A DNA stretch of 64,000 nucleotides from Planctomycetaceae bacterium (GCA_041753475.1 JBGSUN010000001.1:46242-110241); one strand, 5' to 3'. Shown: positions 35,572 through 46,770, counted from the first letter of the stretch. The notes: generated by a model from the letters alone, not told the origin. Made by a program: numbers and translations.

Positions 35572-36780
35572 TCAAATCCGTACAAAGATCCGTTGGCGAT
35601 AGAGCCAGTAGACTAACAGCCAGAACGCCAGCATCACCGCGGACGATGTCACCAACGGTTCGTATTCCGGACCGAAAAATTTTGGCCAGCTTTCGCCGAA
35701 GTGACGAATCAAAGTGTCTTTGGTCCAGCCGCGAACGAGTTGCCCCATCAGGTAGAGCAGGATCGAATTCATCCCGGCGACCACGAGCGGAAACGACCAA
35801 GACCGCCAGCCGAGCACGTCGATCACGCCGTAGAACCCGCAAAGCAGCAGCAGCGTCCAGCCAGTGCTGAAGAGCGTCCAACTCGGCGTCCAGATCCGTT
35901 TCACCAGCGGGCATCCGCCGAAGTAGGACCACGCCCACCCGGCCGCCAGTAGCACCACGCCGGCCGCGATCAATCCGGTGAGTGTGGTCGTTCGGGATTT
36001 CGTCTCCCGGATGAATGTCCCGGCCATCAATCCGAACAGCATCGTCACCAGCGAGGGGACGAAGTTCAGCGTCTGATAGCCCCCCTTGTTAAAGACGAAC
36101 GGAGTCGCGCGGGGGAAGAGATTGAGAAACCACCGGTCCACTTCGGCTGCGGGGTTGGTGTGAATCTGCCAATGGGCTTCGAATCCGGTGAGGTACGTCC
36201 AGGTGGCGGGCATCGAGTACTGTGACCAATCGAAATCCGCCGGAGGCAACGTTGACTGGGCAAACCAGCCCCAATACCCGGCCAGAATCCCCACCGCCGC
36301 CAATGTCTGCACGAACAGCGGCCGGTTCCACAACAGAAAGAGAACGACGTAACCCAGGCCAATCTGCGTCAACACATTCATGAACGTGAACTCGGTCTGT
36401 TTGGACCAGTTGGACGACAGGAAAATGCCAAGCAGAATCAACACGATCGATCGCACCACCGCATGCAGCAGCAGACGGCCGTAGGAATCCCCGGCGGCGT
36501 ACCGCTTGCCATACGAATACGGCAACGAAACCCCCACCATGAACATGAACGACGGCTGGATCAGGTCCCAGAACGCGCAACCGGTCCACGGGACATGTTC
36601 AAACTGGAAATGAACCGCCTTCCAGAACGGACTCTCGGGGGAAGCTTCCAGAAAATTCTTCGCCGTCGCGGCCAGCCCGAAACCGTTGGCGGCCAGCGCA
36701 ATCATCACGAAACCGCGATAGGCGTCCAACGACACGAGTCGGGGTTCGGACGGGTTTTCCGCACGGGGCAAGGCCGACAT
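35572..36780 (-). CDS. DUF5009/DUF1624-type membrane acyltransferase (heparan-alpha-glucosaminide N-acetyltransferase-like)
   Basis: RLVSLDAYRGFVMIALA motif and a profile of about 10 TM segments. Confidence 0.7.
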   Translation of the reverse strand: MSALPRAENPSEPRLVSLDAYRGFVMIALAANGFGLAATAKNFLEASPESPFWKAVHFQFEHVPWTGCAFWDLIQPSFMFMVGVSLPYSYGKRYAAGDSYGRLLLHAVVRSIVLILLGIFLSSNWSKQTEFTFMNVLTQIGLGYVVLFLLWNRPLFVQTLAAVGILAGYWGWFAQSTLPPADFDWSQYSMPATWTYLTGFEAHWQIHTNPAAEVDRWFLNLFPRATPFVFNKGGYQTLNFVPSLVTMLFGLMAGTFIRETKSRTTTLTGLIAAGVVLLAAGWAWSYFGGCPLVKRIWTPSWTLFSTGWTLLLLCGFYGVIDVLGWRSWSFPLVVAGMNSILLYLMGQLVRGWTKDTLIRHFGESWPKFFGPEYEPLVTSSAVMLAFWLLVYWLYRQRIFVRI

Positions 36781-36961
36781 GGAGAGGCGATCCTCGGAGT
36801 TCACAGGCGGAAACCACAATCGTGGTGCAGTTTACGCCACCGACACAGCGGGCGTCCAGAATCGAAGATCGGGCCAGGCACCGATTCCGAACTGGACGCG
36901 GGCTCTGTTTTTGCGACAATATCCCGTCTGGCTGATTGGCTCATTTTTCGGGAATCCGGGC

Positions 36962-38245
36962 ATGCTTCCACGTCGTGATTTTCTGCACGCCACTGCGGGT
37001 GCCCTGACCCTCGGCACGATCGCCCCCACGCTCCGGGCCGAGGAACAGGACAGCGCCGTTCCGCTGCCGCGCGGCAAAGCGGAACACTGCGTAGTGATTT
37101 GGCTGGGCGGCGGGGCCGGGCAGATGGATACGTGGGACCCGAAAGCCCTCGGCGATCCCCAGACGAAGAAAGCCGGTTCGTACTACCCGGCGATTGATAC
37201 GGCCGTCCCCGGCACACAGGTCTGCCAGCATCTGCGACGTTGTGCGCCACTCATGGACCGCTTCAACCTGGTGCGGACCGTCCATCATGACGTGATCGAT
37301 GAACATGCTTCCGCGGTCAATCGGCTGCATACGGGACGTCCCGTGAGTGAGACGGTCACCTATCCGTCCCTCGGTTCGGTGATCGTTGACCAGCGCGGCC
37401 CGGCCGGTGAAGCAGTGCCGCCGTACATTCTCATCGGTTACCCCAGCGCGACCCGCGGCCCGGGTTTTCTCGGGGCGAAGTGTGGGTATGTCTATCTCAC
37501 CGACACGACTTCCGGTCCCGCAGGGTTATCCCGTCCGCCGGAGATTGCCGCCGAACGGCAAGCCCGCCGCGAAGCGCTGCTGGCGCGGGTGCGGAGTGAA
37601 GCCACCGCGAACGTTGCACGGAAAAACTACGACGCCATGATCAGCGAGGCGCTCCGCTACGGCGGGCCACAGTTCCAGAAGTTGTTCCAACTCGATACCG
37701 AACCCGCCGATCTCCGCAACAGCTACGGCGGAGAATTCGGCCAACGCTGCCTGCTCACACGCCGGTTGTTGCAGGCCGGTGTGCGGACAGTGGAAGTCGC
37801 CCATAATCTCAACTTCCTCAACGGCACCGGCTGGGATGTGCACAACGAAGGCATTCTCAACCAGTTCAAACTTATCGAAGAACTGGACATGGCCCTCTCG
37901 GCGTTCATTCTCGATCTGGAACGAAATCAACTGCTCGACAAAACGCTGGTGGTGGTCGCCACCGAGTTCGGTCGCCCGGCGGGTTTTGATGGCGGCGGCG
38001 GACGCGGACATCACGGCAAGTGTTTCAGCGTCGCGCTCGCCGGCGGCGGCCTGAAAAACGGCCGGACGATCGGCACCACGGACGACCTCGCCATGAGCAT
38101 CGTCGACCGCCCGGTCTCTGTACCCGATCTGCACGCCACGATCTACGCCGCGCTCGGTATCAACCCGCGTGAAAACCTCTACGCCGGTGACCGTCCCGTT
38201 CCGATCACGGACGGCGGGACCCCGATTGCAGAGCTGTTTGGATAG
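36962..38245 (+). CDS. DUF1501-family (sulfatase-fold-like) protein with a twin-arginine signal
   Basis: MLPRRDFLHATAGALTLG TAT signal and C-terminal ATEFGRPAGFDGGGGRGHHGKCFSVALAGGGLKNGRTIGTTDD. Confidence 0.85.
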   Translation: MLPRRDFLHATAGALTLGTIAPTLRAEEQDSAVPLPRGKAEHCVVIWLGGGAGQMDTWDPKALGDPQTKKAGSYYPAIDTAVPGTQVCQHLRRCAPLMDRFNLVRTVHHDVIDEHASAVNRLHTGRPVSETVTYPSLGSVIVDQRGPAGEAVPPYILIGYPSATRGPGFLGAKCGYVYLTDTTSGPAGLSRPPEIAAERQARREALLARVRSEATANVARKNYDAMISEALRYGGPQFQKLFQLDTEPADLRNSYGGEFGQRCLLTRRLLQAGVRTVEVAHNLNFLNGTGWDVHNEGILNQFKLIEELDMALSAFILDLERNQLLDKTLVVVATEFGRPAGFDGGGGRGHHGKCFSVALAGGGLKNGRTIGTTDDLAMSIVDRPVSVPDLHATIYAALGINPRENLYAGDRPVPITDGGTPIAELFG

Positions 38246-38382: not shown

Positions 38383-39126
38383 TTACAGTGTGGAGATCGC
38401 CTGCTGCAGCGGCCGCAGCACTTGATCAATCACGTGCCGTTCGAGCAGTTGCTCGCAAGTGATCTTGAGCTGTTGCAATGTCGCTTCGTAGGTGGTGTTG
38501 GGTTCCAGGCTGCCGTACTGCCGGACGGTGAAGTAGACGCTGATCTGATCTTCGGGAAACTCTCCACGGCGGACCTGATAGGCATTGGTGCGGGTTTCGA
38601 TCATCAACCGGGCTTGCCGTCGACAGGATTCATCAAGGCTGATCGTGATCGAGGGTTCGAAGTTGAGCACTTGGGCTCCAGGAATCTCGACGAGGCTTTC
38701 CATGGAGGAACTTGACCCGAGGGCTTCCATCACAATGGCATCGTGATTGCCGCGGTAGTTGAAATCGAAGCCCATCACGTAATCGAGCGCTTCGCAATCC
38801 AGCGAACTGACCGAGAGCATGAACGGCACAAGATCGAGAATCAGCGAGTGTTGATCCAACGCCTGATCGACGGTGTCGGGATTGATGTGTCCGCTGCAGA
38901 TGCGTCGGGGTTCGAGCGTCACCCACCGCTGGTGCCCCATGTCCTTGTCTTCTTCAAGAACGAAGTCGCCGTTGTCGCGGGTGTAAAAATTCCGCATGGT
39001 CGGGTATTGTTTCTGAACCCGTTCAAAGAAACCGAGCACCGTTTCGCGAGCGGCGGGGAGTTGCATCTCCGTGTTCAGGTTCATGTTGACGTAAAAATCG
39101 TCCGCCAGAGATGCGTACGGGTTCAT
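38383..39126 (-). CDS. Hypothetical protein
   Basis: Start set at MNPYASLADDFYV (ATG 39126, AAGGAAAG upstream). The codon bias is good, but no family was recognised. Confidence 0.55.
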   Translation of the reverse strand: MNPYASLADDFYVNMNLNTEMQLPAARETVLGFFERVQKQYPTMRNFYTRDNGDFVLEEDKDMGHQRWVTLEPRRICSGHINPDTVDQALDQHSLILDLVPFMLSVSSLDCEALDYVMGFDFNYRGNHDAIVMEALGSSSSMESLVEIPGAQVLNFEPSITISLDESCRRQARLMIETRTNAYQVRRGEFPEDQISVYFTVRQYGSLEPNTTYEATLQQLKITCEQLLERHVIDQVLRPLQQAISTL

Positions 39127-39268
39127 TGAGCTTTCCTTGAGGTCCCAATCACCGGCCGGATCGCTGCGAAAATCCTCCGCAGCGGCGAACCGTTTCCGTT
39201 TGATCGGGAAAGGGTTCCAAATCAGACCGTCGCCGACCGGCAACCTGCATTCTATCGAGGCAACCTCC

Positions 39269-39871
39269 ATGCGACCAGCACCCGTTCGCTCTGTGAACCG
39301 GACTGCCCCCCAAGCCTGGCGACGGTTTTCCACGTCGATCGGCTGGGTGGGCATCGGCTGGACGGCTGACGGACTGGCAGGGGTCCGCATGGGCTATGCG
39401 ACTGTCGCCGACCTGAATTCTGTGATTGGAGATGAAACGGTCACGGAAATCCCGACGTGGGTCCAGCGATTGGAAGACCGGTTGCAGGCCTACTGCGCCG
39501 GAGCGACGGATGATTTTCAGGACGTTCCCGTTGCAACACTGTGGTCCACGGAATTCCAACGGGCGGTCATCACCGCACTGCGGTCCGTGCCGTATGGGGC
39601 CACGACAACCTACCGGGAACTCGCAGCCCAGGCCGGCAGCCCCGGGGCGTCGCGCGCTGTGGGACAGGTGATGGCGACGAACCCCGTGCCCCTGGTGGTG
39701 CCGTGTCATCGGGTGCTCGGTTCCGGTGGCAAACTCGGCGGGTTCTCGGCACCGACAGGCACCGCATTGAAACAGCAACTGCTCCACATGGAAGCCGCTC
39801 ACATCGTTCCCGCCGCGGAAAGCGCCCCGACTTCATCACGCCGTCCGACGGCAGGAAAGAGAGTGCGGTGA
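39269..39871 (+). CDS. ogt: Methylated-DNA--protein-cysteine methyltransferase
   Basis: Active site VPCHRVLGSGGKLGGF and YGATTTYRELA. The start was set at MRPAPV. Confidence 0.85.
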   Translation: MRPAPVRSVNRTAPQAWRRFSTSIGWVGIGWTADGLAGVRMGYATVADLNSVIGDETVTEIPTWVQRLEDRLQAYCAGATDDFQDVPVATLWSTEFQRAVITALRSVPYGATTTYRELAAQAGSPGASRAVGQVMATNPVPLVVPCHRVLGSGGKLGGFSAPTGTALKQQLLHMEAAHIVPAAESAPTSSRRPTAGKRVR

Positions 39872-40194
39872 TGGCGACGTCCACGCGTGGGCCGGGGTGG
39901 TTGTTTCATGTGACCGCCGGCGCGACCACCGCGTTCATCATTTCGGTGCTGGCAATTGTCGCCACGCTGTTCGGCGACCCCGCGGCCCCGATCAACGGGT
40001 GGATCAACCAATACGGCGCGTACGTGTTGATCGTAGAGATTGTCGCCATCGGCGTGTTCGGGTTCGCGGCAATGGCGAATGATGCGCGCGTGACGCGATT
40101 GGAGCAAAGGGAAGTTGGAGGGCACCCGGCGGGATCAGCGCGGGGCGCGAAACCGCAAGCGGAGGATGGGGGCTCACGGACAACGGACAACTGA
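39871..40194 (+). CDS. Small two-TM membrane protein; the C-terminus is encoded by a family C repeat
   Basis: ATGA overlap with the ogt stop and two hydrophobic helices. The last ~25 codons (GGHPAGSARGAKPQ...) lie inside repeat C1. Confidence 0.4.
   Translation: MATSTRGPGWLFHVTAGATTAFIISVLAIVATLFGDPAAPINGWINQYGAYVLIVEIVAIGVFGFAAMANDARVTRLEQREVGGHPAGSARGAKPQAEDGGSRTTDN
40117..40162. repeat. Family C repeat, copy 1
   Basis: GGAGGGCACCCGGCGGGATCAGCGCGGGGCGCGAAACCGCAAGCGG. The core GCGCGGGGCGCGAAACCGCAA recurs at 42763-42783 and, inverted, at 46713-46733. Confidence 0.85.
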
Positions 40195-41001
40195 CTACGG
40201 ACCGATCCAGCGCCGAATCAGTTGCCGTGACGTCCACTCCCGAAACACCGATTCAATGGCGTCCGGAGTTGTTTCATCAATGATCGTGGCGAGCGCCTCA
40301 GCAATCGTTTCGCCGGACAGCAATCGTTCCAGCACGGCGGACTGCCACGCCGGAATTACCCAGCGGCGGACGATAAACTCTTGCCGGGCGATCAGCACGT
40401 GGGTTGCGCCTGGCTCCGGCAACGGCGGCGATTCATCACGGCGGACGGCCGAGCGGTATTCGTGGACCGGAAAATCACACCGCAACAATCGCACACACGG
40501 ATAAAACTCAATCCGCCCGGCGGCGAATTCCGCGGGATCACGCACGGCCATGCGCTCTTCTGGTGGCGTGCAGTCGGTCTCTGGTCCCTCGGCGTCAAAC
40601 GCTTCCGCAATGGTCCGTTCATAGCGGGCGAGATCCACCAGAAAGTCACCGAAGTCCGGGGCATCGTCGGTCTTCGGCGGTCTGAGTTCCTCGAGAAACT
40701 CCGGAAAGCGGCGGCCGAGTTCCCCCAGCGTGTAACTCCCCGGCGGATAGCGTTCGATGTACGCCACCGCGAACTCATTGAAGGTGTCGTCTCCCACCGC
40801 GGCGACCACGGCGGGGAACTCGCCACGGAGACATTCGCCGAGCCGGGCAAGATAAGCCGATTGATAAACCCGCAACCGTTCTTCAGCGGACAATCGTTGT
40901 GAAGGCAACAGGACGTTGGTGGAAAGCGGTGTGTCAGAGGGTGATCGTGTGATGGCCCCCAACATCCACTGTTGCACGTTCGCCAAGTGCGAAGCGGTCA
41001 T
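40195..41001 (-). CDS. DUF2063-family protein (HvfC/BufC-type partner of MNIO enzymes)
   Basis: RLRVYQSAYLARLGECLRGEFPAVVAAVGDDTFNEFAVAYIERYPPGSYTL...FLVDLARYERTIAEAF follows the DUF2063 pattern. ATG 41001 lies 5 nt after the stop of the DUF692 gene. Confidence 0.8.
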   Translation of the reverse strand: MTASHLANVQQWMLGAITRSPSDTPLSTNVLLPSQRLSAEERLRVYQSAYLARLGECLRGEFPAVVAAVGDDTFNEFAVAYIERYPPGSYTLGELGRRFPEFLEELRPPKTDDAPDFGDFLVDLARYERTIAEAFDAEGPETDCTPPEERMAVRDPAEFAAGRIEFYPCVRLLRCDFPVHEYRSAVRRDESPPLPEPGATHVLIARQEFIVRRWVIPAWQSAVLERLLSGETIAEALATIIDETTPDAIESVFREWTSRQLIRRWIGP

Positions 41002-41005
41002 GGTG

Positions 41006-41974
41006 TCACTCCGCATCGATGGTGACGAGGACGGCAGGCTGCGGGATGTGTTCCGCCGACATGTGTTGGGAGGGCGAAGCTCCCACTGAGCCGCTGATTG
41101 TCCCAGCGTCAGGGAGCCAGTGCCGCTCGGCAGCGACCACCCGCCATCCCTCAGGAGACACACAATCACGGGCGCGTTGCACTTCGGCTTCCAACCGGGC
41201 GAACGGCGGAATGTTCGCGTCCCATTCAATGAGCGTGGCGGCTTGCGGCGAACGGGCATGGGCCACGCGGAACAACTCCCACACGGCGTCGACCACCGGC
41301 CCGTCGTGTGTGTCGATCACATGCGTGTCGAGATCCGTGTGTCCCGCCAGATGAAACTGTACCACGCGCTCGGCAGGGATATTCGCCAGGTATTCGCGTG
41401 GATCGAAATCATGATTTCGTGACGACACATAAACATTGTTGACATCGAGCAGCAGTCCGCAGTCTGCTTCCACCGCCATCCGTGTGAGAAACTCCCATTC
41501 GGTCATGGTCGAATCGCGGAACGTCACATAACTGCTCGGGTTTTCCAACACGAGCGGACGTTCGAGAATGTCCTGAACAGTGCGGATGCGGTCAACAACG
41601 TGGCGTAGTGATTCCTCGGTGAACGGGATCGGCAGCAGATCGTGTGTGTTCCGACCGAGCACGCCGGTCCAGCAGACGTGATCCGACACCCACGCGGCCC
41701 GCACCCGATCCGCGAGCATTTTCAGCTTGCCGAGATATTCCCGATTCAGCGGATCGGTGCTGCCAATGGACAAACTCACGCCGTGCAAGACCACCGGAAA
41801 TCGTTCGGCGACTTGTTCGAGGACATAGCGCGGTCGGCCATGCGAATCGAGAAAGTTTTCGGAGATCGCTTCGAACCAGTCGACGCTCACCTCGTTACCA
41901 AGAATGTGGCCGAAATGGGTCGACCGCAGCCCCACGCCCCAGCCCAACGCAGGGAGACCTAGGCGGGGGGGCAT
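41006..41974 (-). CDS. DUF692-family multinuclear non-heme iron oxidase (MNIO; MbnB/HvfB/BufB/TglH family)
   Basis: [11 protein letters not shown]...[12 protein letters not shown]...[15 protein letters not shown]...[10 protein letters not shown]...[11 protein letters not shown]...[10 protein letters not shown]...[12 protein letters not shown]...VVQFHLAGH. The start was set at MPPRLG (41974). Confidence 0.88.
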
Positions 41975-42009
41975 GGGATGGTTCCTGTTGAGGAAGAAAA
42001 GAGAATCAC

Positions 42010-42168
42010 AGCCCGGAGCGCGAGCGACGGAAGACGATTGGAAAATGGAGAATGAGGAATTCAGAGTGAAGAATGGGGAATTGCATTCGTCATTTTGAAT
42101 TCTCCATTCGTCATTCTCCATTCTCGCGAATCCCTATTTCCATCCGCCGTCGCTGTCGCTCCGGGCTG
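42010..42168 (-). promoter_or_regulatory. Nested hairpin in the spacer between precursor and MNIO genes: family D arms enclosing an AT-rich imperfect palindrome
   Basis: The outer arms AGCCCGGAGCGCGAGCGACGG (42010-42030) and CCGTCGCTGTCGCTCCGGGCT (42147-42167) are complementary at 19 of 21 positions. The inner pair is GGAGAATGAGGAATTCA (42047-42063) and TGAATTC-n8-TCATTCTCC (42096-42119). Confidence 0.7.
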
Positions 42169-42180
42169 AGACAGCGGGAA

Positions 42181-42660
42181 TCAACTCTTCGCCGGGGCGG
42201 AGCCGACTTCTTTGCCCTTCTTTTTCATCGCGGTTTCGAATGCCGTGCGGGCTTTCTGCCAGACTTCATCCATCAACGGCACGTGGCAGCCGCCCTCGGC
42301 TTTGCACGCGTTTTGTCCCGGGAGTTCGCCGCATCCCGCCTGGCCTTTGCATTCGTGAGCACCGCCGCAGGCATGATCGGCGACGCTGGCACAGGTTCCC
42401 TGACCGGCACACTCGTTTTCCTTGCTGCGGCCGAGTCCCTTACAGGTGTTGAGCCCGCGGCAGACGTGCAGGTCATCGACGAGCAACTCTTCCTGCGGCG
42501 TGAGCGCGGACGCATCACCCGCCGGTGGCGCTGTGATCATCGGGCCCGGTCCCCTCCCCATCGGCTTCCCACAGCCGAGCGCCCCGCCTGCCGCAAATCC
42601 GGCGAACGCTGCCAGAGTCCATTTCTGAAAATCACGGCGGTCCAGTTGTTCTCGATCCAT
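42181..42660 (-). CDS. Exported Cys-rich protein, candidate MNIO substrate (bufferin/HvfA-like precursor)
   Basis: N-terminal RRDFQKW plus a hydrophobic stretch ending in LGCG. The core holds nine Cys, mostly as C-x5-C pairs within Gly/Lys-rich CKGxGxC-like motifs. It lies directly upstream of the DUF692 and DUF2063 genes. Confidence 0.75.
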   Translation of the reverse strand: MDREQLDRRDFQKWTLAAFAGFAAGGALGCGKPMGRGPGPMITAPPAGDASALTPQEELLVDDLHVCRGLNTCKGLGRSKENECAGQGTCASVADHACGGAHECKGQAGCGELPGQNACKAEGGCHVPLMDEVWQKARTAFETAMKKKGKEVGSAPAKS

Positions 42661-42741
42661 CGCGCTGTGTCCTTAGAGAATTGAACGAAGCTTCGTTTGC
42701 GAATTGTAGCGGGGAGGTCGCGAAAATGCGTGAGTGACGTC

Positions 42742-42820
42742 GGAGGGCACGCGGCGGAATCAGCGCGGGGCGCGAAACCGCAACGCGTGGATCGTCCGCT
42801 TGCGGTTTCGCGCCTCGCGC
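42742..42820. repeat. Family C repeat, copy 2: two inverted core copies forming a ~24-bp stem
   Basis: GCGCGGGGCGCGAAACCGCAACGCG-tggatcgtc-CGCTTGCGGTTTCGCGCCTCGCGC, preceded by GGAGGGCACGCGGCGGAATCA as in copy 1. Confidence 0.85.
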
Positions 42821-42954
42821 CGAACGCTCGCCAGTGTTCCCCCACATCCACCATTTCTCTGCCAGATCGTCCTTGTCAGGCTTGTATCGTGGTGGGATAA
42901 TGCTGTGACCTGCCTGAAACGCCTCGGATCGCTCCCGCCGCGTGAGATCCCACC

Positions 42955-45246
42955 ATGACGAAAATCTCTTCCCGCTTCCTCGCTGTGACACTCATCGCTG
43001 TCGGCGCTTCGGTCTCCGCAGCAGAGCGGACCGGTGCAATCGTCTATCGTGAAATGTGTGCTTCCTGCCACGGACCGAACGGTGAGGGCACTCCGAAGGC
43101 GTACCCGGAACCGTTGCTCGGGGATAAATCGGTCAAGGAACTGGCGGTCGTCATTGCCAAGACGATGCCGGAGAACCAGCCCACGAAGTGCAGCCCGGAA
43201 GACGCTCAACTCGTTGCGGAGTACATTCACGAAGCGTTCTACTCCCCACTGGCCCAGGCCCGCATCAAACCGGCACGGGTAGCCCTTTCGCGACTGACAG
43301 TCCGGCAGTATCGGGAATCGATTGCGGACTTGTTCGCCGAACTGCGACCATCGGAATCGCCGAATGGTGAACTCGGTCTGCGGGGGAATTATTCGCCGAA
43401 CCGCCGTTCCCGCGACCGGGACCGGAACCGTGACGCCACCCTCGACCGCCTCGATTCCGTAGTCCAGTTTGATTTTGGTGAAGGAAAGCCCATCGACGAT
43501 GAGCGTTTGAAGGCGGACGAATTCTCCATCCAGTGGAGTGGCTCGGTCTTCATCCCCGAAACCGGGAACTACGAGTTCGTGGTGAAGACGGCCAACGGCA
43601 TGAAGTTGTGGGTCAACGACAACAACGTCCCCTTGATCGACGGCAGTGTCCGTTCGGGGAACGATGTCGAGCATCGGGAATCGCGTTTCCTGCTCGGCGG
43701 CCGGTACTATCCCCTCCGGCTGGAATTCTTCAAATCGAACAAGGCCAAGGAAAAGAAAGCGGCCATCGCGCTGCACTGGACGCGGCCGAATCACACGACC
43801 GAATTGATCGACACGCGGTATCTTTCGCCACACCGGTCACGCGAAACGCTGGTGGTCCAGACGCCGTTCCCCGCCGATGACCGCAGCGTCGGTTATGAGC
43901 GGGGGACGTCGGTTTCCAAGGAGTGGGACCAGGCGACCACTGATGGCGCACTGGAAGTGGCCGCGATGCTGTTGCGTGAGGTGAACCCACTTGCCGGGAC
44001 GAAACCCGACGCCGAGGATCGGAAACAGAAGGTGCAGGACTTCACGCTGCAACTCGCCGCGAGGGCGTTTCGCCGACCGCTGAATGAGGAAACCCAGGCC
44101 CTGTTCGTGAAGCAGTTCGCGGACAACGCGGATGTCGACACGGCGTTCCAGCGCTGCGTGCTGTTTCTGTTGAAGTCGCCACGGTTTCTGTATCGCGAAG
44201 TGGAGGGAACCCCGACCGATCCGTGGAATGTGGCGTCCCGGATCGCGTTCACGTTGTGGGATTCCTTGCCGGACAAACCGCTGCGACAGGCCGCCGCGAA
44301 TGGGCAGTTGGCGAATCAGGACCAGATTCGTTCGCAGGTGGAGCGGATGGCCGCCGATCCCCGCGCCCAAGCGAAATTGAACGCCTTCCTGCGACAGTGG
44401 ACCCGGATGGATGCGCTGATCGACATCGCCAAGGATTCCAAACTCTATCCGGAGTTCGATCCCGCCGCCGTGTCCGATCTGCGCACGTCACTGGAACTCG
44501 CCCTTAGTGATGTCGCGACCCAGCCGCAGGCGACGTATCGCCAGTTGATTCTCGACGATCAACTCTACCTCAACGATCGCCTCGCGAGGTTGTATGGTGG
44601 TGAGCTGCCCGCGGACGCGCTGTTGCCGTCGTCCACCACATTCCGGAAATGGAAGCTTCCAGGGGAATCTCGTGTCGGTGTGGTCACGCATCCGTTCCTG
44701 ATGGCGGGTTTTGCGTACACGGCATCGAGTTCGCCGATTCATCGTGGCGTGTATTTGTCGCGCACGATGCTGGGCCGCAGTCTGAAACCGCCGCCGGTGG
44801 CCATTGCACCGGAAATTGCGGATCTGCATCCCGACTTGACCACCCGACAGCGGGTGGAATTGCAGACCGAACCTGAGTTCTGCCAGGGCTGCCACGTCAT
44901 GATCAATTCGCTCGGGTTCACTCTCGAAAGTTTCGACGCCCTTGGTCGCTGGCGCAAGGAAGAAAAGGGGAAGCCGATCGACGACACCGGTTTGTACATC
45001 ACCCGCGACGGTGAAGAGCGTCGGATTCAGGGAGCCCTCGAAATGGGGGCGTACCTGGTTGACAGTCCCGAAAGCCGGCAGGCATTTGTTCAGCAGATGT
45101 TTCACTTTCTGGCGAAGCAGCCGATCCGGGCCTACGGGGCTGATGTCCCCACCGCCCTCGGCCGATCTTTCTTGCAGAACGATCAACAAATTCGCATGCT
45201 AATGATTGATATAGCGACCACCGTCGCCGCGACGGGGTTGAATTGA
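42955..45246 (+). CDS. Planctomycete-type cytochrome-c-motif protein with a PA14-like insert and DUF1592/DUF1588/DUF1585 domains
   Basis: CASCHG heme-type motif, PA14-like [50 protein letters not shown]...KPPP (DUF1588) and [25 protein letters not shown] (DUF1585). Confidence 0.85.
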
Positions 45247-45312: not shown

Positions 45313-45344
45313 GCATCCCGGCTGCGAAGAAGCAGCCGGGATGC
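45313..45344. repeat. Family B hairpin (perfect 13-bp stem)
   Basis: GCATCCCGGCTGC-gaagaa-GCAGCCGGGATGC. Confidence 0.9.
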
Positions 45345-45379
45345 GACGAGTCCATCCCGCCGAAAACGGAATCCCACTC

Positions 45380-46696
45380 ATGACCTACCGATCCTCCCGC
45401 CGCGAATTTCTGCGTGATCTCGGCCTCAGTGCTGCGGCGTTGCCGTTTGTGTGCAATCTGCCGAGCCTGGGGTTCGCGAACCAGACGCAGCGGAAGCAGC
45501 GGCTGATCGTCATGTTCAGTCCGAACGGCATCGTGCCCGATCAATTCTGGCCGGACGAAGAAGGGGCGGACTTCAAGCTCAAAACGATTCTCTCACCGCT
45601 GGAATCGCTGAAGAATCGCACGCTGGTTTTGAACGGCGTCTGCGACAAAATCCGTGGCGACGGCGACAGCCACATGCGCGGCATGGGTTGCCTTCTCACC
45701 GGCTGCGAACTCTTCCCCGGCAACATCCAAGGTGGTTCCGACACCCCCGCCGGTTGGGCCAGTGGCCTGTCGATCGATCAGGAAATCAAGAATTTTCTGC
45801 AAGCCGATGCTGCCACGCGCACACGGTTCGGTTCCCTCGAATTCGGCGTGATGGTGCCCGACCGGGCCGATACGTGGACCCGGATGGTTTACTCGGGTCC
45901 GAATAAGCCGGTCGCACCGATCGATGATCCATACCAGATGTTCAACAAGCTCTACGGTCAGAAAAAGAATCAGGAAAGCCTCCGCAGCATCGTCGACGCA
46001 TTGAAGGACGACTTCCGTAAGCTCGAACCGCACGTCAGCGGGGAAGATCGCGCTCTGTTAGACGAACACGCCACGCTGGTCCGTGATTTTGAACGCGAAC
46101 TGCAAGCCAACCCGGACGGACTGAACCATCCCGAGCCCGTGCTGGAACAGGGCATCAAGGAAGAGAACGACAATATCCCGAAGATCAGCAAGATGCAGAT
46201 TGACCTGCTGGTCCAAAGTTTCCAGGCCGACTTCGCCCGCCTCGCCACGTTCCAGATCACGAACTCCGTGGGCGGTGCGAAGATGCGGTGGCTCGGCATC
46301 GAAGAAGGTCACCACGAACTGTCGCACGAGCCGGACAAGAATGAATCCGCGCAGGACAAGCTCACGCGAATCAACAAGTGGTACTGTGAGCAACTGGCCT
46401 ATCTCGCCGAACGGTTGGCCGCGACGCCGGAACCGGGCGGGCAAGGGAGCCTGCTCGATAACACACTGATCATCTGGACGAACGAACTTGGCAAGGGGAA
46501 CTCGCACACCCTCAACAACATCCCGTTCGTGCTCGTCGGCAACGGCCTCGATTTCCAGATGGGCCGTTCAGTCAAGTTTGACAAGGTCGCCCACAACCGC
46601 CTGCTGATGTCGCTCGCTCACGGCTTCGGTCACCGCCTCACGAAGTTCGGCAACCCCGACTTCTGCGGCGACGGGCCGTTGTCGAATCTGACGTAA
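45380..46696 (+). CDS. DUF1552-family protein with a twin-arginine signal
   Basis: [24 protein letters not shown]. It is collinear with the 29379-30713 paralogue (e.g. [36 protein letters not shown]). Confidence 0.85.
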
Positions 46697-46709
46697 CGCA
46701 CCGATCTCA

Positions 46710-46741
46710 CGTTTGCGGTTTCGCGCCCCGCGCCGATCCGG
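46710..46741. repeat. Family C repeat, copy 3 (inverted orientation)
   Basis: CGTTTGCGGTTTCGCGCCCCGCGCCGATCCGG is the reverse complement of ...GATCGGCGCGGGGCGCGAAACCGCAAACG. Confidence 0.85.
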
Positions 46742-46770
46742 ATCGATCACCGCAACCTTCTCAACGTCGC

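Follow-up and report, generated by a model that had tools for sequence, protein, structure and literature searches.

Our analysis of a 64,000-nucleotide stretch of the genome of a Planctomycetaceae bacterium (GCA_041753475.1, JBGSUN010000001.1:46242-110241; the whole 64-kb stretch is called the window below) identified three co-directional minus-strand genes, spanning 40195-42660, that probably form a Buf2-type bufferin biosynthetic operon (bufA-bufB-bufC) within the 'captophorin' class of thiooxazole metallophores. The genes encode, in order, a Cys-rich precursor, a multinuclear non-heme iron oxidase (MNIO, or DUF692) enzyme and a DUF2063 partner. Bufferins, recognised only recently, are a response to copper stress that is very widespread among bacteria, and to our knowledge all those characterised come from Pseudomonadota. 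An earlier note on this DNA had proposed that an MNIO and a DUF2063 protein act here on a signal-bearing Cys-rich protein, in the manner of the bufferin and HvfABC systems. That proposal is supported by a pass on the BufB model, intact iron ligands, an NGO1945/TglI fold, homology to BufA2, and the same A-B-C gene order in 32 related genomes. The operon is a lineage-specific version of the published bufferin class, and no new system. Its genes are as follows.

42181..42660, minus strand: bufA-like precursor gene, an open reading frame (ORF) of 159 residues with a predicted twin-arginine translocation (Tat)-type lipoprotein signal, a variable linker, a nine-Cys core and a C-terminal helix
41006..41974, minus strand: bufB-like MNIO (DUF692) enzyme, 322 residues from the chosen ATG, in an ORF open up to 42121
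40195..41001, minus strand: bufC-like DUF2063 partner, 268 residues from the chosen ATG, in an ORF open up to 41259

All three ORFs were recovered where the earlier note had placed them, together with the tight DUF692-DUF2063 junction that it described: the bufB stop codon TGA (41008-41006) is followed by 4 nt (cacc) and then by the bufC ATG at 41001. The spacer between bufA and bufB is 206 nt long. No second copy of any of the three genes is present in the window, and neither the operon nor the window contains another Cys-rich ORF.

The enzyme matches PF05114 (MbnB_TglH_ChrH) in Pfam with an E-value of 1.2e-107. Against NCBIfam it scores 360.1 bits (E 5.9e-108) on NF050167 (MNIO_BufB, 'bufferin maturase'), whose cut-off of 310 is the sole curated cut-off that it exceeds; it lies below those of the HvfB (263.6 vs 360), ApyH, MbnB (TIGR04159, 57.6 vs 325) and ChrH models. 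The MbnB ligands of the three iron sites have been described (PMC9060507), and alignment to Methylosinus MbnB (7TCR) showed that all nine are kept (enzyme/MbnB: H64/His54, H99/His90, E144/Glu133, D177/Asp163, N180/Asn166, H208/His192, D221/Asp208, H223/His210 and E250/Glu239). The 41006-41974 protein is thus confirmed as a DUF692 enzyme with conserved iron ligands. Among solved structures the nearest to it is that of the H. somnus DUF692 protein, 3BWW (E 1.7e-50), and a Tautonia sociabilis homologue, 72% identical, carries the name 'MNIO family bufferin maturase' from the NCBI Prokaryotic Genome Annotation Pipeline (PGAP).

Asp252, in an E-W-D sequence of the enzyme, aligns with the Asp of ERDF/ERDD that is the proposed catalytic base in FonB. 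The residue that follows the catalytic Asp helps to determine what an enzyme accepts on either side of its target Cys (FonB Phe250, BufB2 Asp251; PMC13097082). At this specificity site the window enzyme has Ala (an EWDA motif), and others have Phe (ERDF, the H. somnus homologue), Asp (ERDD, the BufA2-linked enzymes of Legionella and Asticcacaulis) or Gly (ERDG, Thiothrix). Of the 120 MNIO proteins that match the window enzyme best, 118 have E-W-D-A; these 120 are its closest relatives, and not all of them are shown to be linked to this precursor family.

The partner has an N-terminal DUF2063 domain (PF09836, E 1.6e-19) and a weak match to NGO1945_C in Pfam. It resembles HvfC (NF050145) over its full length, yet reaches only 49.9 bits against a cut-off of 142, and a phmmer search of the PDB gave nothing real. 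An AlphaFold2 model built with 26 homologues is confident (predicted local distance difference test, pLDDT, 86.8; predicted template modelling score, pTM, 0.83). Foldseek matched this model to NGO1945 (3DEE, E 1.1e-6, TM-score 0.74) and to TglI (8HCI_A, E 1.6e-6; also 8HI7_A), the partner of the MNIO TglH. The C-terminal part of the model also gave a weak match to TbiB1, a recognition element for peptides that are ribosomally synthesised and then modified post-translationally (RiPPs). The partner is thus predicted to have the NGO1945/TglI fold.

The precursor can be divided as follows, with the variable linker between signal and core.

42571..42660, minus strand: signal region, residues 1-30 (MDREQLDRRDFQKWTLAAFAGFAAGGALGC), with a DRRDFQKW twin-arginine motif, a Gly/Ala-rich h-region and a putative lipobox, A-L-G-C30
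42283..42468, minus strand: Cys-rich core, residues 65-126, with H65, nine Cys in C-x5-C pairs, and H126; three Cys-Lys dyads and one Cys-Arg dyad
42184..42282, minus strand: C-terminal extension, residues 127-159, a conserved amphipathic Lys-rich helix

Of its ten Cys, C30 belongs to the signal (..ALGC) and the other nine to the core (67, 73, 84, 90, 98, 104, 110, 119 and 125); the spacing is C-x5-C at 67/73, 84/90, 98/104/110 and 119/125, and the positions in the earlier note are correct. Across an alignment of 112 sequences R8, R9, F11, H65, the nine core Cys, W134, R138, E142, G153 and P156 are invariant, and G29, C30 and H126 are at least 90% conserved. Exactly nine core Cys occur in 116 of 119 homologues of at least 140 residues, and RR.F in all 119. 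An AlphaFold2 model from the 112-sequence alignment has a mean pLDDT of 56, with helices at the signal and at residues 131-147 (pLDDT 78-84); the second of these agrees with the Lys-rich helical tail noticed earlier, predicted here at a pLDDT of ~80.

Pfam has no BufA2 model and gave no match to the precursor. Aligned by hhalign to canonical BufA2, the precursor family matched with 95% probability (E 3.8e-8) over 33 columns. Three genuine BufA2 genes, scoring 80-100 bits, were recovered from Legionella, Asticcacaulis and Thiothrix plasmids, each ahead of an MNIO-DUF2063 pair. Their core, V-H-C-x-G-(I/V)-N-x-C-K-G ... C-K-G-Q-N-x-C-K-G ... C, has its counterpart in the window precursor as HVCRGLNTCKG ... 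HECKGQAGCG ... NACKAEGG. Canonical BufA2 stops shortly past the last Cys and has no C-terminal extension. The shared core motif and the hhalign match identify the precursor, at the level of sequence, as a diverged relative of BufA2 that has, in addition, three further Cys, ~35 residues of linker and a C-terminal extension of ~30. Six of the nine core Cys can be matched to BufA2 positions and three have no counterpart, although which three is ambiguous between the motif reading and the hhalign register. C67 and C119 may correspond to the outer (disulfide) Cys of C. vibrioides Buf2, an assignment that is uncertain because the two registers differ. The precursor has no EGKCG motif.

Three other affiliations of the precursor were considered and set aside. 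A PDB match of its profile to EGFR was rejected as chance; DUF7640 was dropped as the family, since two of 20 relatives matched it weakly and canonical BufA2 not at all; and the NCBIfam 'invert_tail' matches, which fall in the signal/linker region, were taken to reflect composition.

The earlier note had also described a twin-arginine-like RRDFQKW signal ending at a Cys, and D-R-R-D-F-Q-K-W is indeed present, with C30 directly after ALG. TIGR01409 (TAT_signal) was matched by 12 of 20 relatives of the precursor (best E 0.0013), two of which, P0043 and P0059, reach its 16.7-bit cut-off. These matches, with the invariant RR-x-F and the Gly/Ala-rich h-region, point to a Tat-type signal. A lipobox-like pattern occurs in at least 111 of 119 homologues, with Ala, not Leu, Val or Ile, at position -3; the near-invariant G-C at the end of the signal points to lipoprotein processing. 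The canonical BufA2 signals on the Legionella, Asticcacaulis and Thiothrix plasmids are Lys-rich and of the general secretory (Sec) type. Neither 'Tat' nor 'twin-arginine' occurs in the published survey of the class (PMC12452194), and a literature search for MNIO with twin-arginine gave nothing relevant. Signals with RR-x-F are also present on the neighbouring DUF1501 and DUF1552 proteins, which suggests that the twin-arginine type may be common in the exported proteins of this organism.

The spacer between bufA and bufB holds one further element.

41990..42171, minus strand: terminator-like long nested hairpin (42006-42171; inverted repeats I1 and I4, RNA fold) followed by a U/C-rich tract (~41990-42005)

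The hairpin folds at -94.5 kcal/mol (z -6.1), and none of 200 shuffles was as stable. UUCUCUUUUCUUCCUC lies directly 3' of it, and an AGGAA Shine-Dalgarno-like motif precedes the bufB ATG. In 12 of the 31 related loci whose spacer is 30 nt or longer, the A-B spacer is structured (z of -3 or lower, against mononucleotide shuffles), with sequences that differ. A sigma-70 promoter scan found no site on the operon strand. We rejected the idea that the hairpin is a repeated mobile element, as it is unique in the window. Terminators that set a high ratio of precursor to enzyme are common in RiPP operons, and the hairpin is probably an attenuating terminator of this kind.

Taken together with what is known of related systems, the most likely function of the operon is that an iron enzyme and its helper turn Cys residues of a small, exported, lipid-anchored protein into metal-binding rings. 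A cytoplasmic BufB-BufC complex, with O2 and a mixed-valent di-iron centre, would oxidise several core Cys to 5-thiooxazoles (-4 Da each), the likeliest sites being those in the Cys-Lys and Cys-Arg dyads (C67, C73, C104 and C119), together with Cys close to them; of the other Cys, some would probably form disulfides after export. The modified protein would then be exported post-translationally via the Tat pathway, C30 would be diacylglycerylated and the signal cut by LspA, leaving a membrane-anchored metallophore of 130 residues that could buffer or chelate copper, or another soft metal, in the periplasm. The predicted mature product has an isoelectric point of ~7 and contains 20 Gly, 11 Lys and 4 His. 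The hairpin past bufA would stop most transcripts, so that precursor is made in excess over both enzymes. The steps of modification, export, lipidation and metal binding are proposed on the strength of homology with the Caulobacter system (PMC11626156).

The published class is broad. In the survey of ~14,000 MNIO clusters by Antoine et al. 2025 (PMC12452194), the length of Buf2 precursors ranges over 51-367 residues, ~16% of them have lipoprotein signals, Buf2 clusters are without sigma/anti-sigma genes, many precursor genes are unlinked to MNIO genes, and MerC-Buf2 fusions are known. The C. vibrioides buf2 operon is without DoxX; BufBC install 5-thiooxazoles, bufferins protect against copper, which alone among metals has been shown to induce bufferin operons and which bufferins have been shown to bind (PMC11626156). 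A disulfide joins the outermost Cys of C. vibrioides Buf2, the first and the last, and the central four are modified; HvfB is now assigned thiooxazole chemistry as well. Lipidated bufferins have been discussed too (PMC13056109). Planctomycete members have already been catalogued: WP_092048714.1 from Planctomicrobium piriforme (P0112), which shares 56% identity with the window precursor and has MNIO and HvfC_N genes after it, is listed in Table S1, sheet Fig1C, of PMC12452194, in two-entry rows under the column heads Buf1 and Buf2, and we read it as Buf2 because it is the second entry. In Table S2 of the same work Planctopirus limnophila has consecutive accessions for two Buf2 genes and for single MNIO, DoxX and DUF2063 genes.

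Most of the features singled out as unusual in the earlier note therefore lie within the published range. A large precursor, a possible lipid anchor, and the absence of DoxX and of sigma/anti-sigma genes all have precedent among the Buf2 systems just cited; only the Tat-like leader and the nine Cys are without a description that we could find in the literature on the class. That literature likewise yielded no description of the conserved C-terminal helix, of EWDA at the published specificity site, of a terminator-like hairpin between precursor and enzyme genes, or of a presence/absence polymorphism of the enzyme pair.

Homologues of the precursor comprise 385 cluster representatives, and relatives occur in 445 species genomes. 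The best 80 loci are nearly all from Planctomycetota (Schlesneria, Planctomicrobium, Gimesia, Pirellulaceae), a few being labelled Verrucomicrobiota and Binatia, and 73 of the 80 have enough flanking DNA for their neighbourhoods to be judged. Precursor and MNIO genes are adjacent, in the order A-B-C, in 32 of these 73; in four others the MNIO gene is just upstream, in a two-precursor layout, A'-B-DoxX-A-C. The expectation that the Cys-rich ORF would be conserved beside MNIO genes is thus borne out in 36 informative loci and fails in the other 37, which have no MNIO nearby.

Several of these loci have features of their own. At L074 (3887-4327, 4444-5430, 5450-6007, 6001-6492, 6489-7373) two paralogous precursors enclose the MNIO and DoxX genes, with DUF2063 last; one paralogue has a twin-arginine signal and an A-x-A site and no lipobox Cys, and the other has a lipobox. 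At L088 (1108-7571), from a hot-spring metagenome-assembled genome (MAG) labelled Schlesneria paludicola, a non-lipobox family member is followed by MNIO and HvfC_N and then by Crp, zf-HC2 anti-sigma, MerR and MerT/HMA genes, neighbours that make a link of the family to mercury or copper handling possible. The 'Schlesneria paludicola' MNIO P0227, from a MAG, is encoded beside a precursor gene of its own. Nineteen loci without the enzymes, many of them labelled Schlesneria (for example L015:4855-5394), have an ORF that looks MogA/MoaB-like by eye and starts a few bases past the precursor gene, and in 14 loci (for example L073:805-1617) an exported thioredoxin-like protein adjoins it; neither kind of neighbour has a counterpart in the window.

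A number of observations weigh against assigning the operon to the Buf2 type. The window precursor scores 21.3 bits (E 2.3e-4) on the NCBIfam BufA2 model (NF050166), under the 60-bit cut-off; 19 of 20 precursor relatives match that model likewise weakly (best E 2.6e-6), and none reaches the cut-off among the matches listed. It has nine conserved core Cys, not the 6 or 12 of Buf_6/12Cys, and the core has a pLDDT below 50 and no reliable model, unlike BufA1 and BufA2, for which good models have been reported. The Tat assignment is by motif, and the window precursor itself was not reported on TIGR01409. The enzyme has EWDA instead of the ERDD of the Legionella and Asticcacaulis BufA2-associated enzymes, and its site selectivity may therefore differ. 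No copper-related, DoxX, sigma or anti-sigma gene lies within ~6 kb of the operon, and DoxX is absent from the entire window. Lastly, 37 of the 73 informative loci, including two syntenic sister genomes, have a precursor without an adjacent enzyme pair, and these stand-alone precursors are as conserved as the linked ones in RR.F, lipobox and helix, with nine Cys in 35 of the 37.

The enzyme-less loci speak for an alternative in which the nine-Cys Tat-lipoprotein functions without MNIO chemistry, through thiolate metal binding or in a disulfide-rich structural or redox role, and bufBC is an optional cassette gained or lost by lineage. These loci lack an MNIO gene within 2 kb or more, and the sister loci L005 (assembly DASRYX01) and L007 (assembly CAZAGI01) sharpen the point. 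Their precursors are ~80% identical to that of the window, and their flanks are kept at 70-96% identity (the small membrane ORF, MGMT and the 335-residue protein described below in both, the DUF1552 and PSD genes in L005), yet window positions 40106-42186 (2.08 kb, comprising the hairpin, bufB, bufC and one repeat copy) are missing exactly from L005 (6481-6533) and L007 (6453-6587), with the precursor intact. A third locus, L006, has the segment, and the difference is a clean insertion/deletion polymorphism. The many Buf2 genes unlinked to MNIO genes in the published survey (PMC12452194) are also consistent with an independent role. On the other hand, the enzymes may act in trans: Pirellula staleyi has its Buf2 gene and its single MNIO-DUF2063 pair at separate loci. 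In addition, A-B-C order and tight spacing are strict wherever the enzymes are present, and a proven substrate of an MNIO is among the homologues of the precursor. We consider this alternative unlikely. A bolder form of it, to which we give the same low probability, is that the nine-Cys Tat-lipoprotein is an autonomous metal handler whose thiolates the bufBC cassette 'upgrades' to thiooxazoles in some lineages only. If so, the nearly identical syntenic loci that have or lack the 2.08-kb cassette would amount to a natural experiment on the gain from thiooxazole chemistry, and the switch from Sec to Tat would mean export in a folded, possibly metal-loaded state that removes metal from the cytoplasm as well as buffering the periplasm.

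It is also conceivable, if rather improbable, that the operon belongs to the same general class and differs in chemistry (another Cys-derived group, or another subset of Cys) or in target (Hg, Au, Zn or a redox role). The clade-specific EWDA places Ala at the specificity site, where two of three BufA2-associated enzymes have Asp and the H. somnus homologue Phe; there are three extra conserved Cys, and H65 and H126 flank the core. L088 adjoins MerR and MerT/HMA genes, MerC-Buf2 fusions have been published (PMC12452194), and no copper genes lie near the window operon. Set against these, the enzyme exceeds the BufB cut-off and falls under that of every other MNIO subfamily, recent studies agree on 5-thiooxazole for bufferins and for oxazolin, and copper is alone in having been shown to induce bufferin operons and is the metal that bufferins have been shown to bind. 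Finally, the notion that the Cys-rich gene is a mere neighbour and the MNIO pair modifies some other, unannotated substrate, which might be suggested by a precursor that is under the curated BufA2 threshold and often found without enzymes, is very improbable given that the operon and window hold no other Cys-rich ORF or second copy, that in 36 of 36 related loci with an MNIO the enzyme gene lies right next to a family member, and that the precursor has significant BufA2 homology and stands in the strict bufABC order that is the published cluster signature.

The genes around the putative Buf2-type operon are typical of planctomycetes, and none is metal-related: DUF1501, PSD/PSCyt (DUF1592/DUF1588/PA14/cytochrome c) and DUF1552 genes (36779-38245, 42955-45246, 45341-46696) and an MGMT-like methyltransferase gene. 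A protein of 335 residues encoded at 38383-39390 (minus strand) has no Pfam match and is 79-96% identical in L005-L007; its gene overlaps a long upstream extension of the MGMT-like ORF at 39137-39871 (plus strand), and the probable start of the MGMT gene is near 39400. L005-L007 also conserve a small membrane protein of two helices that starts near 39871. The region also contains repetitive extragenic palindromic (REP)-like repeats.

40108..40167, no strand assigned: REP-like repeat copy downstream of bufC, inside the segment absent from sister loci (direct repeat D1, inverted repeat I2)
42733..42823, no strand assigned: pair of inverted REP-like copies in the divergent region upstream of bufA

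The GC-rich core of these repeats, GCGGGGCGCGAAACCGCAA, has four intergenic copies in the window against 0.11 expected, at 40140-40158 (+), 42765-42783 (+), 42800-42818 (-) and 46713-46731 (-), and the inverted pair upstream of bufA makes a hairpin. REP-like copies flank the homologous operon in L006 too. We considered REP-mediated deletion as the cause of the bufBC polymorphism and rejected it because the copies flank the whole operon, not the missing segment. A 217-residue ORF at 39541-40194 (+) has a C-terminal part that is a translation of the REP-like repeat, with similar peptide strings in ORFs 42632-42991 and 46568-46750; as listed, this ORF is therefore probably not the real gene.

The operon adds nothing categorically new. 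What it does is define a coherent planctomycete subfamily, marked by the predicted twin-arginine lipoprotein signal, the nine-Cys core, the helical tail and EWDA, and this subfamily offers a test case for which Cys an MNIO modifies, for the importance of the export route, and for whether precursors without a neighbouring enzyme are modified. The syntenic genome pairs with and without the enzyme cassette make the last of these questions directly approachable. The lineage-specific details are of specialist note and leave the overall picture unchanged.

Comparison with known systems places the operon closest in outline to the C. vibrioides Buf2 cluster, with which it shares the order precursor-MNIO-DUF2063, the absence of DoxX and of sigma/anti-sigma genes, a BufB-model enzyme, an N-terminal export signal, and an H-x-C-x-G-x-N-x-C-K-G ... 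C-K-G-Q-x-x-C-(K/G)-G core. In contrast to Buf2/Buf_6/12Cys precursors, that of the window has a twin-arginine motif and putative lipobox in place of a Sec-type signal, and an invariant set of nine Cys where theirs number 6 or 12; it also has ~35 residues of linker and a C-terminal helix of ~30, and its enzyme has EWDA where three BufA2-associated enzymes have ERDD or ERDG. In the HvfABC/oxazolin system of Haemophilus influenzae, as predicted for the window, an MNIO and a DUF2063 protein modify Cys of an exported protein into copper-binding heterocycles. HvfABC precursors, however, are EGKCG-repeat, Lys-Cys captophorins, whereas the window precursor is without such repeats, its enzyme and partner miss the HvfB and HvfC cut-offs, and Ala replaces Phe at the specificity site. 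Lipidated MNIO RiPPs (DybA-type chryseobasin relatives and predicted lipo-bufferins and lipo-oxazolins; PMC13056109) likewise combine cytoplasmic MNIO modification with the general lipoprotein pathway via a lipobox Cys, as proposed here; they differ in their Sec-type signal peptidase II (SPII) signals and ChrH-type macrocycle and hydantoin chemistry, as against the RR-x-F signal and BufB-type enzyme of the window. The Planctopirus limnophila-type cluster (Buf2-MNIO-DoxX-Buf2-DUF2063), a layout shared by L063, L074 and L078, has two precursors, soluble and lipoprotein paralogues, and a DoxX gene, where the window has one precursor and no DoxX in 64 kb; it has the precursor family, enzyme clade and bacterial family in common with the operon described here.

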